From: an uncultured Clostridia bacterium
Lineage (GTDB): Bacteria; Bacillota; Clostridia; Christensenellales; Borkfalkiaceae
Assembly (NCBI GenBank): GCA_964600525.1
Contig: CAZRJY010000001.1
Coordinates: 1-46,506 of the forward strand
DNA: 46,506 nt
Direction of reading: 5' to 3'
In this document: positions 14,842 to 46,506 of the stretch, in pieces
How positions within the stretch are numbered: position 1 is the first letter of the stretch
Layout: each line of letters begins with the position of its first letter
Made by a program: the position numbers and the translations under genes
The notes under the pieces: model-generated
The model's database searches: none
Told to the model about the DNA's origin: nothing
What the model saw: only the letters and a program-made list of their open reading frames with translations

Positions 14842-15102
14842 TTAACTTACCCAAAGCCAGGCGATTAATCCCATAATACCGAATACCAGAATTACAATTA
14901 AAAACACGGGCGCATAGGCGGCAAACGCCGCGCGCACAAGCTGTCTGTATTCCTTTCGGGACATTTTCTGCCTGTGCTTTTTCATTCCGCTTTGACTGCG
15001 TTTTTTTAAATTCGGGTCGTACCAACGGAACCCCTCCACGTTCATATCCGCAAAGGTGGTTTCCATATCCAAATCGTCTTGTTTTTTATTCTTTTTCGAC
15101 AT
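14842..15102 (-). CDS. small basic protein with C-terminal TM helix, function unknown
   Basis: 86-aa ORF. Its start overlaps the oppF stop by 17 nt. The C-terminal helix is APVFLIVILVFGIMGLIAWLWV. A terminator hairpin follows immediately. Only a weak RBS is present, so the start (M1 versus M13) is uncertain. Confidence 0.45.
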   Translation of the reverse strand: MSKKNKKQDDLDMETTFADMNVEGFRWYDPNLKKRSQSGMKKHRQKMSRKEYRQLVRAAFAAYAPVFLIVILVFGIMGLIAWLWVS

Positions 15103-16354
15103 TATCGGTTTTTACTTCTTCAACCTGAGGATTTTCTGCCGCGGTCACACCGTCTGTATCCGCTTCGGTCGCACCGTCTGTATCCGCCGCGGTCGCACCG
15201 CTCTTCTTTTTGAATATGTTCTTAACGGTTGTTACTATCTTGGTTTTAGCCACGTTCCAGGGCTTCTTCGCTTCCTTTTCGGCGCGCGCCCTCTCTTCCT
15301 CGTCGTTGATATCAGCCTGCGCAAGCAGTCTTTCGGTGTCCTCGGCGCTGTTGTAAAGATGGCACGAGCAGAAATGCCCTTCCTCGATTTCCCTGTACTC
15401 GGGTGCAATGCGGCCGCAGATTTCCATACAGTGCTCGCAGCGCGTGTGGAATTTACAGCCCTTGGGCGGATTGACGGGCGAAGGAATATCGCCCTTTAAC
15501 ATTATTCTGTTCATCTTCACGTGCGGATTGGGCACGGGAACCGCCGAGAAAAGCGCCTTGGTGTAAGGGTGCAGAGTATTATTGAATATCCTATCCTTAC
15601 TGCCGTACTCGACAATGTTGCCGAGATACATTACGCCTACGTCGTCGGATATGTGCTTGACAACCGACAAGTCGTGCGAAATGAATATGTATGTCAGACC
15701 GAGCTTCTCCCTCAGCTCGATAAGCATATTTATAACCTGCGCCTGTATGGATACGTCGAGCGCGGATACCGGCTCGTCGCATACGACAAGCTTGGGTTTA
15801 AGCGCCAAGGCGCGCGCGATACAGATACGCTGTCTTTGTCCGCCCGAGAACTCGTGCGGATAACGCTCGAAATAATGGGGCTGTAAGCCGCACATATTCA
15901 TAACGTTAAGAACGTAATCGTGGAAGCCCGCTCTGTCCACAAGCCCGTGCTGGCGCGCGGACTCGCCGATTATCTCGCCTACCGTAAGGCGGGGCGAAAG
16001 ACTCGCGTACGGGTCCTGGAATATCATCTGCATATTGGGGCGCAGTTTGTCGAACTCGCGGTTTTTGAGCTTAGCCACGTCCTGACCGTCGAATATAATC
16101 TCGCCCTCTACGCCGTCGTACAGTCTTAAAAGCGACCTGCCCATGGTAGATTTGCCGCAGCCCGACTCGCCGACTATGCCGAGGGTTTTGCCCTTGTACA
16201 GCGTGAACGATATGCCATCTACCGCCTTTAAAAACTTGGTCGGTTTGCCGAAAAGGTTGGTTTCGACGGGGAAATATTTCTTTAAATTCTTGACTTCGAG
16301 GAGCGGTTCGCCCGCAGCGGTATTTTCCAATACGACTTCTTCGTTATTGTCCAT
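15086..16354 (-). CDS. oppF: oligopeptide ABC transporter ATP-binding protein OppF-type, with ~90-aa charged/acidic C-terminal tail
   Basis: Walker [10 protein letters not shown], signature FSGGQRQR and Walker B LVVCDEPVSALD are present. The Opp C-terminal Cys motif is present: CKFHTRCEHCMEICG...HFCSCH. It is the second ATPase of an ABCDF-ordered cluster. Confidence 0.9.
   Translation of the reverse strand: MDNNEEVVLENTAAGEPLLEVKNLKKYFPVETNLFGKPTKFLKAVDGISFTLYKGKTLGIVGESGCGKSTMGRSLLRLYDGVEGEIIFDGQDVAKLKNREFDKLRPNMQMIFQDPYASLSPRLTVGEIIGESARQHGLVDRAGFHDYVLNVMNMCGLQPHYFERYPHEFSGGQRQRICIARALALKPKLVVCDEPVSALDVSIQAQVINMLIELREKLGLTYIFISHDLSVVKHISDDVGVMYLGNIVEYGSKDRIFNNTLHPYTKALFSAVPVPNPHVKMNRIMLKGDIPSPVNPPKGCKFHTRCEHCMEICGRIAPEYREIEEGHFCSCHLYNSAEDTERLLAQADINDEEERARAEKEAKKPWNVAKTKIVTTVKNIFKKKSGATAADTDGATEADTDGVTAAENPQVEEVKTDNVEKE
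15143..15200 (-). repeat. 24-nt in-frame tandem repeat (about 2.4 copies) in the oppF C-terminal tail
   Basis: The copies are ggtcacaccgtctgtatccgcttc, ggtcgcaccgtctgtatccgccgc and ggtcgcaccg. They encode ...ADTDGATEADTDGVT... Confidence 0.85.
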
Positions 16355-43999: not shown

Positions 44000-45857
44000 A
44001 ACAATACACCGCCCAATCCGCTACGACTATCACGGCGAGGATAATGAACGCGTACAACAAATCCTCGTAAATTCCGTCGCGCTTTGCGTTCGAAGGCTCG
44101 CCCTCTATCACAAAGCTCGACTCGGTAGCGTTGACTGTGCGTTCCGCCACCGGTAACTGTGAATATATCTTTGCACTCTGACGGTTATTGCCTATAACCG
44201 CCGTAACCGTGTATTCCCCGACCTCGGTAAGCTCGTATTGAATTACCGCCTCGGAGGTATTTACGTACTCCGCCTTGCCCGAAGGGCTTACCACCCTTAT
44301 GCTCGAACAGTTGGGAAGCATGTTGATTGACAGCGCTTCCCCGCAGTAAAGCTTGCTTATATCCACAAGCGAGGGGAAGGTGTACTGTAAAAGATTGTAC
44401 AATATTATTCTGCCGTTAAACGACAGTGCAAAGTCGGAAGTTTCTATCAGGTCTATGCCGAACACAACCTCGCGGTTGCCGTAAGAGTTCGTGCCAGCCA
44501 GAATTACGGGGTCGTTGCCGCAGTACGCAACCTCGGCGAACTCGCGGTACTTGCCCAGCTTCAAATACTCGTTTACGTAGGTGCTCTCTTTCCTGTCTAT
44601 GCCCGCAACGAGGGTTTCCCTCAGTCCGCCCCTCTTGTCGTTGAACGTCAGCCTCGCGGGGTTGCCGAGCGTTTCCACGCCGCGGCGCGAGAAGCCCGAG
44701 GTTTCGTCCACGCCCGTATCGGGGTTGACAAACCAAACCGCACCCTCCGAAGGCATTGCCGAAGGAGTGAAGTTCTGGAAGATGTAAAGTCTGTACCTGC
44801 CCTTTACCTTTTCGTAATCGTAGTCTTTGGTTCCGACAGTGTCGTAGTCCACGCCCATAGCGCCCAGCGTCGCCTCCAAGAAGAAGGGCTGGTTACTTAT
44901 TATAAGCGCGCCCGACGAATTGTCGGCGTCCGCCTTATCGTCCGCAAAGCGGTTGTAGAGAATTATCTGATTGTCAAGCGAAAGGCTGTCGCCCTGCTTT
45001 ATCGCCACGCGCAGCGACGAGAACTGTTCCTGCGCCCAGCTTATCGAAAAGTCCGCCGCCGTGCCCTGCGCAACCGTGACGTCGGTCGAAGCGGCGGGCC
45101 CGCGCGCGTCGTCAACGAAAACCTGTACGGTCAGCGTCGCGTCGTTTTCATAAGAAAACGCTTTGCCCGACACGACGATTTTGCCGTCGGGCGAGTAAGT
45201 GTACTCCACCTGGTCGAGCGCGTAATTTGTAGCGTTGCCCGACACGTCGATAACTTCCACGTTCTCGGCCGCAAGCACCGTACGGTCGGTTATAAGATAG
45301 AACCTGCATGCGCTGTTTTCGTCGAAATAGCTTTTAGCCATGGTCGAAGCGGTTGCAAGGTTGGCGTCTACGAACGAGGGCTCGACCGAATTCAGACGTC
45401 TTAAAGCCGTCTTTTTGTCGCTGACCTCTTTCATTACCATTTCGGTGGTGTTGCCCGTGGTAATTAGCGTGAACGTACTGCCGTCGGCGGCGGACGATAT
45501 GATGTCGCTTATGCGCCCTTTGCCGATATTGAAGCGGCTTTCACCGCTCTGCACCGTCTGCATACTGCCCGAACCGTCAAGGATAAAACAGTAGTCCATA
45601 GCCTTGCCGGGAAGCGTGAACACGGGGTGCGCAAGCGCCCACGAAATAAGAACCACCGCCAAAATCTGCAAGATAAGACTGATTATGCCCGTTATCTTGT
45701 TTATGGGGTTCTTGCGCTTTAAAAACTTTTCGCTCAAAGTCCACAGATAGGTCGAGGTTATCGTCTGTTCCGTGTACTTGCTCTTTATGATGTAAATGAT
45801 TAAAAGGACGGGAATTGCCAGAAGTCCCAACAGTCCGAGAGGATAAGCAAATCTCAT
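43977..45857 (-). CDS. BatA-like vWA/MIDAS membrane protein with C-terminal TM anchor
   Basis: 626-aa ORF. The N-terminus MRFAYPLGLLGLLAIPVLLIIYII matches the BatA N-terminal domain pattern. A second TM is present, followed by the MIDAS motif CFILDGSGSM (D94 codon 45576-45578). The C-terminal helix is LLYAFIILAVIVVADWAVY. Its start overlaps the DUF58 stop (ATGA). Confidence 0.88.
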   Translation of the reverse strand: MRFAYPLGLLGLLAIPVLLIIYIIKSKYTEQTITSTYLWTLSEKFLKRKNPINKITGIISLILQILAVVLISWALAHPVFTLPGKAMDYCFILDGSGSMQTVQSGESRFNIGKGRISDIISSAADGSTFTLITTGNTTEMVMKEVSDKKTALRRLNSVEPSFVDANLATASTMAKSYFDENSACRFYLITDRTVLAAENVEVIDVSGNATNYALDQVEYTYSPDGKIVVSGKAFSYENDATLTVQVFVDDARGPAASTDVTVAQGTAADFSISWAQEQFSSLRVAIKQGDSLSLDNQIILYNRFADDKADADNSSGALIISNQPFFLEATLGAMGVDYDTVGTKDYDYEKVKGRYRLYIFQNFTPSAMPSEGAVWFVNPDTGVDETSGFSRRGVETLGNPARLTFNDKRGGLRETLVAGIDRKESTYVNEYLKLGKYREFAEVAYCGNDPVILAGTNSYGNREVVFGIDLIETSDFALSFNGRIILYNLLQYTFPSLVDISKLYCGEALSINMLPNCSSIRVVSPSGKAEYVNTSEAVIQYELTEVGEYTVTAVIGNNRQSAKIYSQLPVAERTVNATESSFVIEGEPSNAKRDGIYEDLLYAFIILAVIVVADWAVYCYEQYQLR

Positions 45858-46506
45858 TTCAGTATCCCCCCGCCCGTAAGATTTTCGAAGAACAGCTTGC
45901 CCACGGGGTCCTCGTCGCAGACTAAAATATAGTCCGCGCCGCGCGCCGCGCAGTAGTCGCGTATTCTGCCCGTGGCGTATTCGACCGCCTTTTTATAAGC
46001 CTGCGCAATTTCGCGCGTAATATTTTTGCGGTAGTATTTTCCGCTGTCCTCGCTGTCGAAAAAGTGCATCTTTCCGCGCGCTTTCGGGTGCAATTCTTCC
46101 TTCGAAAGCACCTGCACGCACAGAACGTGCCTTTTCTTGCCCGTCAGGTGGTCGATTGCCGCCTCGTAATCGTTGTCGGTTAAAAAGTCGGAAATTATTA
46201 TCGACATACCGTCGCCGTAACCCACCGTCGAGGGCACGATTGCGTCGGATATATAGCTGTCGCCCGAAAAATTAACTTCGTTGAGCGCGTTAATCGAGCT
46301 TATATACGCCTCTTTTCCGAGCATACCCGAAATTACGGCGTTTAACTGTTTGTTCTGAACGGTATAAACGGAAACCTTGTCCATTTCGCACACGGAAAGA
46401 TAGGCGAACGCCGCCGCGATTTTAAGCGCCTGTTCGTCTTTCTTTGCCTTTCCGAAACCCATTGAATTGCTTGCGTCGATATAGATGCGGGTGTGCATCT
46501 GCCTCT
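45854..46506 (-). CDS. DUF58-family (vWA-like fold) protein, N-terminal part outside the window
   Basis: The reading frame stays open upstream of the track's M at 46498 (…RQMHTRIYIDASNSMGFG). The DxSxS segment IYIDASNSM and the protein's position directly before BatA-like genes match the DUF58 member of MoxR-DUF58-vWA operons. The expected MoxR ATPase would lie beyond 46506. Confidence 0.75.
   Translation of the reverse strand, partial: RQMHTRIYIDASNSMGFGKAKKDEQALKIAAAFAYLSVCEMDKVSVYTVQNKQLNAVISGMLGKEAYISSINALNEVNFSGDSYISDAIVPSTVGYGDGMSIIISDFLTDNDYEAAIDHLTGKKRHVLCVQVLSKEELHPKARGKMHFFDSEDSGKYYRKNITREIAQAYKKAVEYATGRIRDYCAARGADYILVCDEDPVGKLFFENLTGGGILK

Follow-up and report, generated by a model that had tools for sequence, protein, structure and literature searches.

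A putative protein-foraging operon with a giant surface subtilase and an Opp importer beside a Bat-like operon in uncultured gut Clostridia

Introduction

In polysaccharide utilisation loci (PULs) of Bacteroidota and in Gram-positive PULs, the surface proteins that bind the substrate, a depolymerase anchored at the surface and the matching importer are all encoded at a single locus. Lactic acid bacteria cut protein at the cell surface and import the oligopeptides through Opp (PMC7783315); in Lactococcus, the proteinase and Opp functions are encoded on plasmids or the chromosome and can share a replicon (PMC6458302). Another described system, the Bat (Bacteroides aerotolerance) operon MoxR-DUF58-BatA-BatB-BatC/D/E, occurs in Bacteroidota, spirochaetes and Francisella (PMC3557215, PMC5700661, PMC11834572).

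Here, we analysed a 46,506-nt stretch of DNA (the window) from an uncultured Clostridia bacterium and compared it with relatives, all of which are metagenome-assembled genomes. Its 31.6-kb gene block probably represents two separately transcribed operons (modules A and B) that are neighbours in a single clade of gut Clostridia, uncultured and Christensenellales-like. Among the named relatives is 'Candidatus Coproplasma'; their genomes measure 1.4-1.7 Mb (PMC8035907), a small size that is consistent with dependence on imported peptides. The direct observations are the order of the genes, the operon signals, the identities of the domains and the fact that each module is conserved as a unit.

Results

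All 14 open reading frames of the block were verified on the minus strand and are co-directional (Table 1). The recomputed junctions bore out the tight gene packing described in an earlier note on this DNA: overlaps of 4 nt (45854-45857), 23 nt (43977-43999), 4 nt (41237-41240), 8 nt (24020-24027), 11 nt (16344-16354) and 17 nt (15086-15102), gaps of 17, 23, 35, 24, 12 and 2 nt, and a sole long gap of 315 nt at 36616-36930. The domain calls of the note were also right, as Pfam returned DUF58, BatA_N plus VWA, two VWA, Glug, SBP_bac_5, two ABC_tran plus oligo_HPY and two BPD_transp_1 matches (one with OppC_N), and four DxSxS motifs were found across the three MIDAS proteins. One correction concerns the "214-aa" DUF58 open reading frame, which is a 3' fragment cut by the window end, because its frame is open through base 46506, its match begins only at profile position 38 and its orthologues have 294 aa. 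Consistent with the claim that the giant or orphan proteins are secreted or lipid-anchored, lipoboxes were seen in L504, L925, GLUG and L503 (as well as in OppA), while a signal peptide and a C-terminal transmembrane (TM) helix were recognised in the S8/LRR protein. Searches of Pfam, NCBIfam and structures for well-characterised families of unrelated function matched none of the orphans.

Table 1 Features of the two modules, in order of transcription
Feature	Position	Strand	Basis or remark
DUF58 (vWA-like, MIDAS DASNS), 3' part	45854-46506	-	Pfam PF01882, E 6e-13, profile positions 38-211
626-aa BatA_N + VWA membrane protein, MIDAS DGSGS	43977-45857	-	PF07584 E 4.8e-12, PF13519 E 4.2e-11
920-aa membrane protein, two VWA (MIDAS DVSYS, DTSRS)	41237-43999	-	PF13519 E 3e-28, two stretches
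L504 lipoprotein	39726-41240	-	ATGA overlap with upstream gene; always adjoins vWA genes
L925 lipoprotein, last module A gene	36931-39708	-	slot of hypervariable 700-1700-aa lipoproteins
Intrinsic terminator, end of module A	36888-36912	-	11-bp stem, 9 GC pairs, T run; equivalent hairpin in relatives
Candidate operator, palindrome TTTATGCA-N9-TGCATAAA (perfect)	36788-36812	.	upstream of module B promoter
Module B promoter and conserved 5'UTR box AAAATAGGGTTATAGTC	36651-36710	-	TTTGCA-16-GATAAT, upstream TG
GLUG lipoprotein, 1567 aa, module B gene 1	31912-36615	-	PF07581 just at cut-off (20.7 vs 20.5 bits)
2622-aa surface subtilase (S8/LRR), module B gene 2	24020-31888	-	Pfam
L503 lipoprotein, module B gene 3	22516-24027	-	overlaps subtilase gene, ATGACTAA
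Expanded OppA-like lipoprotein, 889 aa	19811-22480	-	PF00496, two stretches
OppB	18776-19786	-	BPD_transp_1
OppC	17648-18763	-	BPD_transp_1, OppC_N
OppD, 433 aa with insert	16344-17645	-	ABC_tran, oligo_HPY
OppF, 422 aa with C-terminal extension	15086-16354	-	ABC_tran, oligo_HPY
86-aa protein, last module B gene	14842-15102	-	overlaps oppF by 17 nt
Intrinsic terminator, end of module B	14810-14836	-	11-bp stem and T run, 6 nt past stop codon

The 315-nt gap holds the terminator and promoter that the earlier note had placed there: a strong 11-bp-stem hairpin and, at 36710-36683 on the minus strand, the -35/-10 pair of module B. The hairpin, palindrome, -35/-10 pair and ribosome-binding site of this gap are kept in seven relatives, in which the promoter and 5'UTR columns are conserved though the flanking proteins are only 27-69% identical. 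At the other end, no strong minus-strand terminator other than that at 14836-14810 was found between 14700 and 32000. The split between the modules found by comparative genomics falls exactly at the 315-nt break.

Module A is a Bat-like operon, and the window contains its 3' part (46506 down to 36931). Its gene order is X534-MoxR-DUF58-BatA/vWA-2xvWA-L504, usually with a large lipoprotein next. The MoxR AAA+ gene expected by the earlier note beyond base 46506 is present in relatives directly upstream of DUF58, and a membrane protein of 500-600 aa (X534) precedes it. The BatA_N/VWA and 2xvWA proteins, each with two N-terminal and one C-terminal TM helices, were found in 52 and 53 of the 55 species loci, respectively. 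All five core partners occur in 50/55 loci, the shortfalls being contig ends, and the vWA core with L504 is complete in every one of the 55 for which the contig is long enough. No Pfam domain was detected in any of the 83 homologue clusters of L504; its AF2 model (pLDDT 87), with Foldseek matches to the ColG CBD, PPC and the CPE C-terminal domain (target-normalised TM score 0.5-0.78), predicts that L504 is an all-beta N-terminal part with a collagen-binding/PPC-like sandwich plus a conserved C-terminal alpha/beta part. L925 had no match in Pfam or NCBIfam and gave tblastn matches in 29/55 loci (26-58% identity). Its homology with slot proteins from distant loci is limited to a Cys/His-rich N-terminal module common to the slot lipoproteins (L925 residues 27-75, window 39484-39630). 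Downstream of module A, distant relatives carry thiol-redox genes (a redoxin lipoprotein and a membrane polyferredoxin-redoxin). By analogy with other MoxR/vWA pairs, the MoxR ATPase and MIDAS proteins may assemble into a membrane complex for remodelling or loading a client, with the invariant L504 and the slot lipoprotein as the likeliest surface partners or clients.

Module B (36710 down to 14810) is most plausibly an operon of ten genes, spanning about 21.9 kb and combining a giant surface protease with an importer for peptides, in the order GLUG-S8/LRR-L503-OppABCDF-86aa. The S8/LRR protein consists of a signal peptide, an S8 domain with a (marginal) PA insert, fn3_5, Big_2, six BspA-type LRR_5 units, the C-terminal helix as TM anchor and an acidic tail. 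In a phmmer search against the PDB, its residues 208-938 matched C5a peptidase, SpyCEP and cell-envelope proteinase A (E 1e-44 to 1e-35). The motifs DTG 220, HGTH 305 and GTSM 680 were recognised, and most of the full-length orthologues checked also carry the His and Ser motifs; by sequence, the protease head is thus a member of the cell-envelope-proteinase/C5a-peptidase family with a predicted intact catalytic triad. The GLUG lipoprotein has a beta-helix module at about residues 245-560, of a type widespread in metagenomes, followed by a long repeat-rich C-terminal part; it has no sequence relative in the PDB, and its gene lies upstream of S8/LRR wherever that position is visible. The L503 gene is always located between S8/LRR and OppA and is predicted to be translationally coupled to the subtilase gene via the overlap ATGACTAA. 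The L503 model is all-beta (AF2 pLDDT 89) without a significant fold match in the PDB; an hhalign comparison with the GLUG family (probability 89%, E 2e-6) shows the C-terminal domain of L503 to be a relative of the first part of the GLUG beta-helix, and the L503 family comprises 1005 50%-identity cluster representatives at E<=1e-3.

In the importer, an insert of about 330 aa interrupts the SBP_bac_5 domain of OppA, which matches every solved structure weakly; the expanded family has members of 836-979 aa and at least 1885 matches. OppBCDF are 64-94% identical across the orthologous B loci (L001-L067) and 54-67% in L068, which is more distant. The last protein, of 86 aa, has a basic N-terminus and a single TM helix in its C-terminal part; it is kept after OppF in L001, L002, L016, L062, L063 and L065-L067 (45-79% identity).

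A question raised by this layout is whether both modules form one cell-surface system, as the earlier note had proposed, in which the MoxR/vWA/MIDAS module would assemble, anchor or maintain the giant surface proteins that feed Opp. The two modules are indeed adjacent and co-directional in the window, in 8 species loci and in L004 and L005; L016 has OppD-OppF-86aa directly upstream of X534 (order B then A), and the distant L058-L061 have an orthologous expanded OppA about 8 kb after module A. The palindrome TTTATGCA-N9-TGCATAAA, with one exact match in the window against 0.04 expected, also lies upstream of GLUG in L004, L005, L008, L011, L018, L027, L039 and L055, and a near-identical N8 version precedes X534, the start of module A, directly in many loci, so that the A and B promoters have the palindrome in common. 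This common candidate operator hints at a residual link between the modules, and together with the recurrent A-Opp adjacency (L016, L058-L061) speaks against their full independence. However, GLUG follows module A in only 8 of the 36 assessable species (those with enough sequence downstream of A), while the other 28 have neither GLUG nor S8 there; the entire 22-kb B block is missing between L925 and the SDH_alpha gene in L015, L021 and L024; module B stays intact beside the ribosomal S10 operon (L063, L066); and a conserved terminator and a separate promoter divide the modules. Moreover, their adjacency is limited to the closest relatives (MoxR >=82% identity), as expected from inherited synteny. 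We therefore regard a single system as unlikely. Each module is conserved as a unit, whereas the joint set is not; the protease-importer logic of the earlier proposal stood, with the B unit kept in all contexts, and the vWA module as a dedicated partner did not.

Inherited synteny may also bear on module B itself. Many of its genomes are fairly close kin (OppD 81-94% and SDH_alpha 67-90% identical), so its conservation is partly plain synteny, and synteny reaches past the block to the SDH_alpha, T291 and Fer547 flanks. These kept flanks and the moderate closeness of the relatives compared would fit a slowly rearranging small genome in which the surface and transport functions are independent and co-linear by chance. 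On the other hand, start and stop codons overlap within each module, module A is kept with wholly different flanks across 55 species, and module B is intact after at least two relocations, one next to the S10 operon (L063, L066) and one to a place upstream of A (L016), which makes synteny as the whole explanation very improbable. Module B was intact in nine of nine distinct contexts (window, L001, L002/3, L062, L063, L064, L065, L066 and L067) with three kinds of downstream flank (SDH_alpha; the ribosomal S10 operon; T291/ferredoxin), its order being kept despite the changed flank and only 25-50% identity of the surface proteins.

This fast divergence, against 80-94% for the cytoplasmic parts, is typical under host or phage pressure, and could indicate that module B serves mainly in interaction with a host or partner. 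In that case, the subtilase would cleave host immune factors, as do its nearest solved relatives, C5a peptidase and SpyCEP, or its six BspA-type units would make it an adhesin alongside GLUG and L503 adhesins, Opp being a mere neighbour or an importer of signalling peptides. In L068, genes for an L503-like protein and three GLUG/Flg_new giants accompany the expanded Opp, and no S8 gene was found within 25 kb, indicating that the protease is not an obligatory partner of the expanded Opp. Nevertheless, the tight coupling in module B (8-nt and 35-nt junctions, no internal terminator) and the unvarying S8-L503-OppA order in nine contexts speak against this role, and the cell-envelope-proteinase family includes nutritional enzymes too (PMC7783315). 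A mainly host-directed locus is, in our judgement, rather improbable.

Discussion

In our preferred reading, module B packs the "surface proteinase plus Opp" scheme of lactic acid bacteria into one operon and adds two orphan beta-helix lipoproteins, and module A is a Bat-like variant that lacks TPR genes. Judging from family membership and the intact triad, the membrane-anchored subtilase would capture proteins via its LRR and Ig-like domains and then cut them, after which the expanded OppA lipoprotein would bind the peptides, and OppBCDF with the 86-aa membrane protein would import them. GLUG and L503 may serve as substrate-binding or scaffold partners, and the overlapping genes may ensure that L503 and the protease are made in a fixed ratio. 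The block thus packages a known feeding strategy in an unusual way and does not amount to a new kind of system.

Like the lactic acid bacterial system (PrtP/lactocepin, PrtM, Opp), module B combines a complete OppABCDF with a giant surface-anchored S8 subtilase of the PrtP, ScpA and SpyCEP family, with PA insert and Fn3-like domains. It differs in that protease and Opp share one operon, the anchor is a C-terminal TM helix instead of a cell-wall (LPXTG-type) one, the C-terminal half of the protease consists of BspA-type LRR_5 repeats, and GLUG and L503 are present instead of a PrtM-type prolyl isomerase. Compared with the usual Opp, OppA is about 350 aa longer, OppD and OppF have inserts, and an 86-aa membrane protein is appended. 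The streptococcal C5a peptidases (ScpA/ScpB) and SpyCEP share the S8, PA and Fn3 architecture and are the best solved-structure relatives of residues 208-938; in contrast, these virulence factors of about 1100-1650 aa stand alone, are anchored by sortase and have neither LRR arrays nor a co-encoded Opp. By analogy, module B would resemble PULs in joining surface binders, a depolymerase and an importer in one locus, although it would target protein, its importer belongs to the Opp-type ABC transporters and the locus has no regulator gene. Module A, in turn, shares with the Bat operon a leading MoxR (AAA_3/bpMoxR), DUF58, BatA_N plus VWA and a further VWA membrane protein in the same order (PMC11834572, PMC3557215), and the thiol-redox genes after A in distant relatives echo the reduced periplasm proposed as Bat's role. 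Unlike described Bat operons, it lacks the TPR proteins (BatC/D/E), is found in a Clostridia-class lineage, and has an additional upstream membrane protein (X534) and two dedicated lipoproteins, L504 and the hypervariable Cys/His-headed giant.

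Layout and transcription signals of the gene block

The earlier note had described 14 consecutive minus-strand genes running from 46506 to 14842 and read them as one surface system. All 14 were confirmed as ORFs, and when every junction was recomputed, the reported overlaps of 4, 23, 4, 8, 11, and 17 nt were reproduced with exact coordinates; the other junctions are gaps of 17, 23, 35, 24, 12, and 2 nt. The single break, which had been placed at 36616-36930 with a terminator and a promoter, is a 315-nt gap in which both elements were found (see the table). No credible minus-strand terminator was found between the one in this gap and a second strong one beyond the last gene. 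The genes before the gap, from a cut DUF58 gene to L925, belong to module A (X534-MoxR-DUF58-BatA_N/vWA-2xvWA-L504-slot lipoprotein), and those after it form module B (GLUG-S8/LRR-L503-OppABCDF-86aa); L504, L925, and L503 are lipoproteins named by their lengths. The Pfam results agreed with the previous domain calls (DUF58; BatA_N plus VWA; two VWA; Glug; S8/LRR; and a complete Opp set), with the Glug match lying just at the cut-off, and each of the five surface proteins carries either a lipobox or a signal peptide combined with a TM anchor at the C-terminus. The 214-aa ORF assigned to DUF58 kept its domain but not its length, because the gene runs off the window end and the ORF represents only part of a 294-aa protein.

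The 315-nt leader showed no riboswitch or T-box in the Rfam search, which gave no match in the whole window at the gathering threshold and only chance-level matches in the leader. Likewise, the CodY box AATTTTCWGAAAATT was not found at the module B promoter, and its two three-mismatch matches elsewhere are at chance level. Another box, AAAATAGGGTTATAGTC (36651-36667), lies in the 5' UTR of the B operon and is kept in most of seven relatives; it matched no Rfam family.

Coordinates of features in the window and in comparison loci (L numbers, from relatives or metagenomes)
Feature	Position	Strand	Remark
Terminator in the 315-nt gap	36912-36888	minus	11-bp stem, 9 GC pairs
-35/-10 pair in the 315-nt gap	36710-36683	minus	
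Second strong terminator	14836-14810	minus	six bases past the last gene
Cys/His-rich module of L925	39484-39630		residues 27-75
Redoxin lipoprotein gene	7417-10422	plus	1001 aa, AhpC-TSA/Redoxin domain
Fer547 gene, extracytoplasmic thiol-redox set	10940-12583	minus	
T291 gene, extracytoplasmic thiol-redox set	12585-13460	minus	
Small L504-profile lipoproteins	L060 16132-16890; L061 16705-17460; L059 11631-12053		
Extra lipoprotein gene	L008 14272-17994; L011 14252-17914		
Palindrome copies	L004 1281-1304; L008 1540-1563; L012 1661-1684; L023 1861-1880; L057 11592-11613		

Module A is a widespread Bat-like operon

Relatives were found by an alignment-based scan; the surroundings of L504 homologues were taken from three public contigs and 55 species-representative genomes, and the window proteins were mapped onto them. 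A scan of genome contigs using L503 alone as the query yielded no relative, and an exact-sequence look-up of the window BatA/vWA protein returned no record. The results showed that the order X534-MoxR-DUF58-BatA_N/vWA-2xvWA-L504 occurs in every locus with a long enough contig, X534 being a membrane protein of 470-600 aa with no family assigned. A MoxR gene (bpMoxR, AAA_3, AAA_lid_2) lies directly 5' of DUF58 in L004-L006 and in 51 of the 55 species loci; this invariant order therefore establishes in relatives the MoxR gene that had been predicted past 46506, outside the window. DUF58 is followed by a protein with the BatA_N double TM plus VWA and then by a further MIDAS VWA membrane protein, which is the Bat arrangement in terms of Pfam domains, TM helices, and DxSxS motifs. 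Four such motifs are distributed across the three proteins, and each of the two vWA proteins carries a pair of TM helices at its N-terminus and a single one at its C-terminus. No TPR family was detected in the module A proteins (Pfam; orphans down to E up to 5). The median identity to the window falls steeply from the cytoplasm to the surface, i.e., MoxR 80%, DUF58 64%, BatA/vWA 43%, 2xvWA 39%, and L504 30%. A vWA-MoxR anti-phage or conflict system was also considered for module A and rejected: PADLOC had no match for six of the seven proteins and only weak generic AAA matches (E of at least 2.6e-5) for MoxR. Module A is a Bat-like MoxR/vWA operon, separate from module B and far more widespread.

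Lipoproteins encoded with module A

The putative clients of module A are L504 and the slot lipoprotein encoded by the following gene. The L504 model (pLDDT 87) comprises a collagen-binding/PPC-like sandwich (TMt 0.5-0.78) and an unmatched conserved C-terminal part, and the fold search gave a match at the binding-domain level only. In about 48 of the 55 loci, the gene after L504 encodes a lipoprotein of 700-1700 aa. The bodies of these proteins are mutually unalignable, and nearly all start with a Cys/His-rich module just past the lipobox (for example, CNKGGHQHAPNWTTDYEATC...GKCVCGH), with a His-rich variant, HTHTF..W.....HWH.A.C.H, in distant loci. The module may have a metal- or disulfide-related role. 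Two identities were ruled out for L925, the slot lipoprotein of the window, namely a diverged redoxin lipoprotein and a diverged form of the 1220-aa slot protein of L006, as the likeness to each is confined to the signal peptide.

NCBIfam gave no match for L504, L925, GLUG, L503, the 86-aa protein, or X534, and relaxing the Pfam searches of the orphans to E up to 5 produced no credible further match; the orphan lipoproteins have homologues only in uncultured "Clostridia bacterium" MAGs and "Candidatus Coproplasma". The L504 family profile also matches small lipoproteins (140-250 aa; E 2e-14 to 5e-7) that are encoded 5' of an OppA-like gene, and the L504 domain therefore exists as a stand-alone protein as well. 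In three species (L008, L011, and L012), an extra gene for a 1220-1240-aa lipoprotein lies between L925 and the GLUG promoter, and its product in L008 has matches to CarboxypepD_reg, Big_1, and a collagen-like repeat.

Module B is a conserved protease-importer unit

The contexts of module B were collected with L503 homologues (34-69% identity) and expanded-OppA homologues (44-51% identity). All of them share one order: GLUG-like (1466-1687 aa), S8/PA/fn3_5/LRR_5 (2406-2655 aa), L503-like (416-546 aa; profile E of at most 1e-60), OppA (862-919 aa), OppB, OppC, OppD, OppF, and a membrane protein of 81-86 aa. The 3' flank is an inverted SDH_alpha gene in the window, L001, L002, L062, and L065, the ribosomal S10 operon in L063 and L066, and directly T291 plus the ferredoxin-redoxin gene in L067. 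The same order despite differing flanks means that the unit stays intact through rearrangements, and the previous claim that the protease and the importer belong together thus holds as a genuine conserved unit across all the B contexts examined. In L001-L067, the identity to the window is 81-94% for OppD, 64-89% for OppB/C, 44-74% for OppA, 41-73% for S8/LRR, 27-65% for GLUG, and 25-69% for L503; in modules B and A alike, divergence within one operon is much faster for proteins exposed at the surface than for those in the cytoplasm.

A more distant metagenome contig (L068 1-25307; OppD 67%) carries a gene for a Flg_new/L503-like lipoprotein followed by the expanded OppABCDF, with three tandem 1333-1360-aa Flg_new/GLUG lipoproteins 3' of these. 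In its 25 kb, an S8 gene was not found and the small 86-aa gene was not detected. The deeper association is therefore that of Opp with beta-helix lipoproteins, which the protease joins in the clade including the window.

The 2622-aa subtilase contains an S8 domain (PF00082, E 3e-34) with the triad motifs DTG 220, HGTH 305, and GTSM 680, of which the His and Ser motifs are kept in most full-length orthologues checked. As in the cell-envelope proteinase/C5a peptidase group, a PA insert in the catalytic domain is followed by a Fn3-like domain (fn3_5, E 1.6e-9), although PA scores 22.6 bits in the window protein, slightly below the 23.9 cut-off; PA is present in the orthologues of L002/L003, L005, L062, L064, L066, and L067 and weak in that of L065. 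The alignment with C5a peptidase, SpyCEP, and cell-envelope proteinase A (E 1e-44 to 1e-35; 7edd, 5xyr, and 1xf1) covers residues 208-938. Pfam adds Big_2 and six stretches of LRR_5 (PF13306, E 8e-112), and the LRR part, with the PDB relatives 4fs7, 4gt6, and 4h09, is that of a BspA-type LRR surface protein. At the C-terminus, a hydrophobic helix (2538-2556) precedes KKRK and a final acidic stretch; there is no LPXTG in the C-terminal 140 residues and no wall- or S-layer-type anchor. No PrtM-type lipoprotein maturase, which is a trait of the lactococcal proteinases alone, was found beside the subtilase, its neighbors GLUG and L503 having no rotamase/PPIase domain and L503 an all-beta fold.

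The Opp set is complete (PF00496, two PF00528, PF12911, two PF00005, and two PF08352). OppA has a lipobox; it matches solved OppA/AppA structures weakly (E 5e-4 over about 50 residues) and lies far below the cut-off of NCBIfam Opp4A. In L058, an 846-aa ORF (4394-6934) seems to join residues 18-381 of Fer547 to residues 538-888 of the expanded OppA, with OppB next; this may be either a genuine fusion or an assembly error in the 7-kb MAG contig.

L503 and the GLUG giant each represent an unannotated lipoprotein family defined by the operon, and both always occur with an unusually large OppA. The L503 model has a pLDDT of 89, and the fold search against the PDB gave no match at E<=1e-3, the best being generic Ig-like and beta-helix proteins. 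In hhalign (probability 89%, E 2e-6), its C-terminal domain aligns to the first part of the GLUG beta-helix, and its superfamily has 1005 representatives at 50% clustering. GLUG has no sequence relative in the PDB. Its beta-helix module, with the motif FDGNGHTI at residues about 245-560, occurs widely in metagenome contigs of the human gut and other sample series (L069-L147), with at least 306 tblastn-confirmed stretches; it is a common surface-protein building block and not specific to the B operon. When metagenomes were scanned with the GLUG alignment, most matches were this generic module in unrelated proteins, and only L068 was informative. GLUG and L503 might act in binding, as a scaffold, or in maturation, given the invariant position of both genes and the overlap of L503 with the protease gene.

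Relationship between the two modules

A question is whether the two modules are one system. Among the species loci, 36 extend for 8.7 kb or more 3' of L504, and GLUG follows module A in only 8 of them; in 3 of those 8 the extra 1220-1240-aa lipoprotein gene lies between. In L002, L062, and L064-L067, the analysis covered GLUG and the genes 3' of it. The adjacency is confined to the closest relatives (MoxR identity of 82% or more), and the gap persists in all of these, complete with terminator hairpin, promoter, and conserved RBS. In L015, L021, and L024, SDH_alpha, T291, and Fer547 come after L925 within 2.5-4.5 kb, which is the window layout minus the 22-kb B block. The restricted adjacency together with the conserved gap signals supports two transcription units whose adjacency is lineage-specific. 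The one-system reading of the earlier note thus stands for the protease/importer unit and for MoxR in relatives, but not for the vWA module, which is a separate operon adjacent in one clade only. Two arrangements hint at a possible link. In L016, OppD-OppF-86aa lies directly upstream of X534. In L058-L061, the genes that come after module A on its strand are homologues of those for the redoxin lipoprotein, T291, and Fer547, and beyond them lies an OppA colinear with the expanded type (28-37% identity).

A third hint is a perfect palindrome in the gap, TTTATGCA-N9-TGCATAAA (36788-36812), which is the only one in the window against 0.04 expected. It occurs 5' of GLUG in eight relatives, and in many loci X534 is preceded, at a distance of 21-65 nt, by a near-identical version with N8 that sits just past the conserved A promoter. 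The redoxin lipoprotein gene has a two-mismatch copy (7291-7313) about 105 nt upstream. In L008 and L011, which have the inserted gene, both the palindrome and the promoter remain beside GLUG, and L012 has only a two-mismatch copy there. The palindrome suggests a regulon of surface-lipoprotein operons, and its presence at the A, B, and redoxin lipoprotein genes makes a shared regulator acting on both modules plausible.

Fer547, a membrane polyferredoxin of 547 aa, carries a Redoxin domain at its C-terminus, and T291 is a 291-aa five-TM orphan. In the window, the redoxin/polyferredoxin genes lie 22-30 kb from module A; homologues of all three redox-set genes come directly after A in L058-L061, and only that of the redoxin lipoprotein is found in L057. 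For a possible contribution of module A to oxidative or other stress tolerance, these positions are circumstantial evidence only. Bat proteins were reportedly once proposed to keep the periplasm reduced, which the redox set beside A and B echoes.

A joint reading would place A, B, and the redoxin lipoprotein gene in one regulon via TTTATGCA-N8/9-TGCATAAA, with the Bat-like MoxR/vWA/L504 machine as a dedicated loading/maintenance platform for giant, fast-diversifying surface lipoproteins, recognized by the Cys/His-rich N-terminal module on nearly all slot proteins. We consider this reading improbable as a whole; if true, it would provide a concrete client for the long-enigmatic Bat operon family.

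Comparison with known systems

To our knowledge, the function of the MoxR/vWA (Bat) system has been unclear since 1999. The Clostridia version, with one invariant and one hypervariable lipoprotein partner (and, in distant relatives, thiol-redox genes), offers candidate MoxR/vWA clients. Module A has the same order, MoxR-DUF58-BatA-vWA, as the Bat operon of Bacteroides, spirochaetes, Francisella, and Riemerella (PMC3557215, PMC5700661, PMC11834572), but it lacks the TPR proteins and has added lipoproteins.

In lactic acid bacteria, a surface proteinase makes oligopeptides that OppA passes to OppBCDF (PMC7783315); the proteinase and opp can share a replicon, e.g., plasmid-borne lactocepin and opp, and one operon is not reported there (PMC6458302). 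Module B is best explained as a one-operon form of this proteolytic system. It differs from the latter in several respects: the proteinase has a TM anchor rather than a wall anchor and bears a BspA-type LRR array; PrtM is lacking; two orphan beta-helix lipoproteins and an 86-aa membrane protein are added; OppA exceeds the usual length by about 350 aa; and OppD and OppF contain inserts. Among the papers found in the literature search, none describes this gene combination.

Candidatus Coproplasma (Christensenellales, Borkfalkiaceae) has genomes of 1.4-1.7 Mb with 50-56% GC (PMC8035907), so that an operon of about 22 kb corresponds to more than 1% of the genome in these named relatives. If our reading is right, small-genome uncultured animal-gut Christensenellales devote about 22 kb to one operon for protein capture, cutting, and import, which would give a handle on the feeding of these abundant, unculturable organisms and on medium additions for their cultivation. 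Overall, each module is a new form of a known kind.
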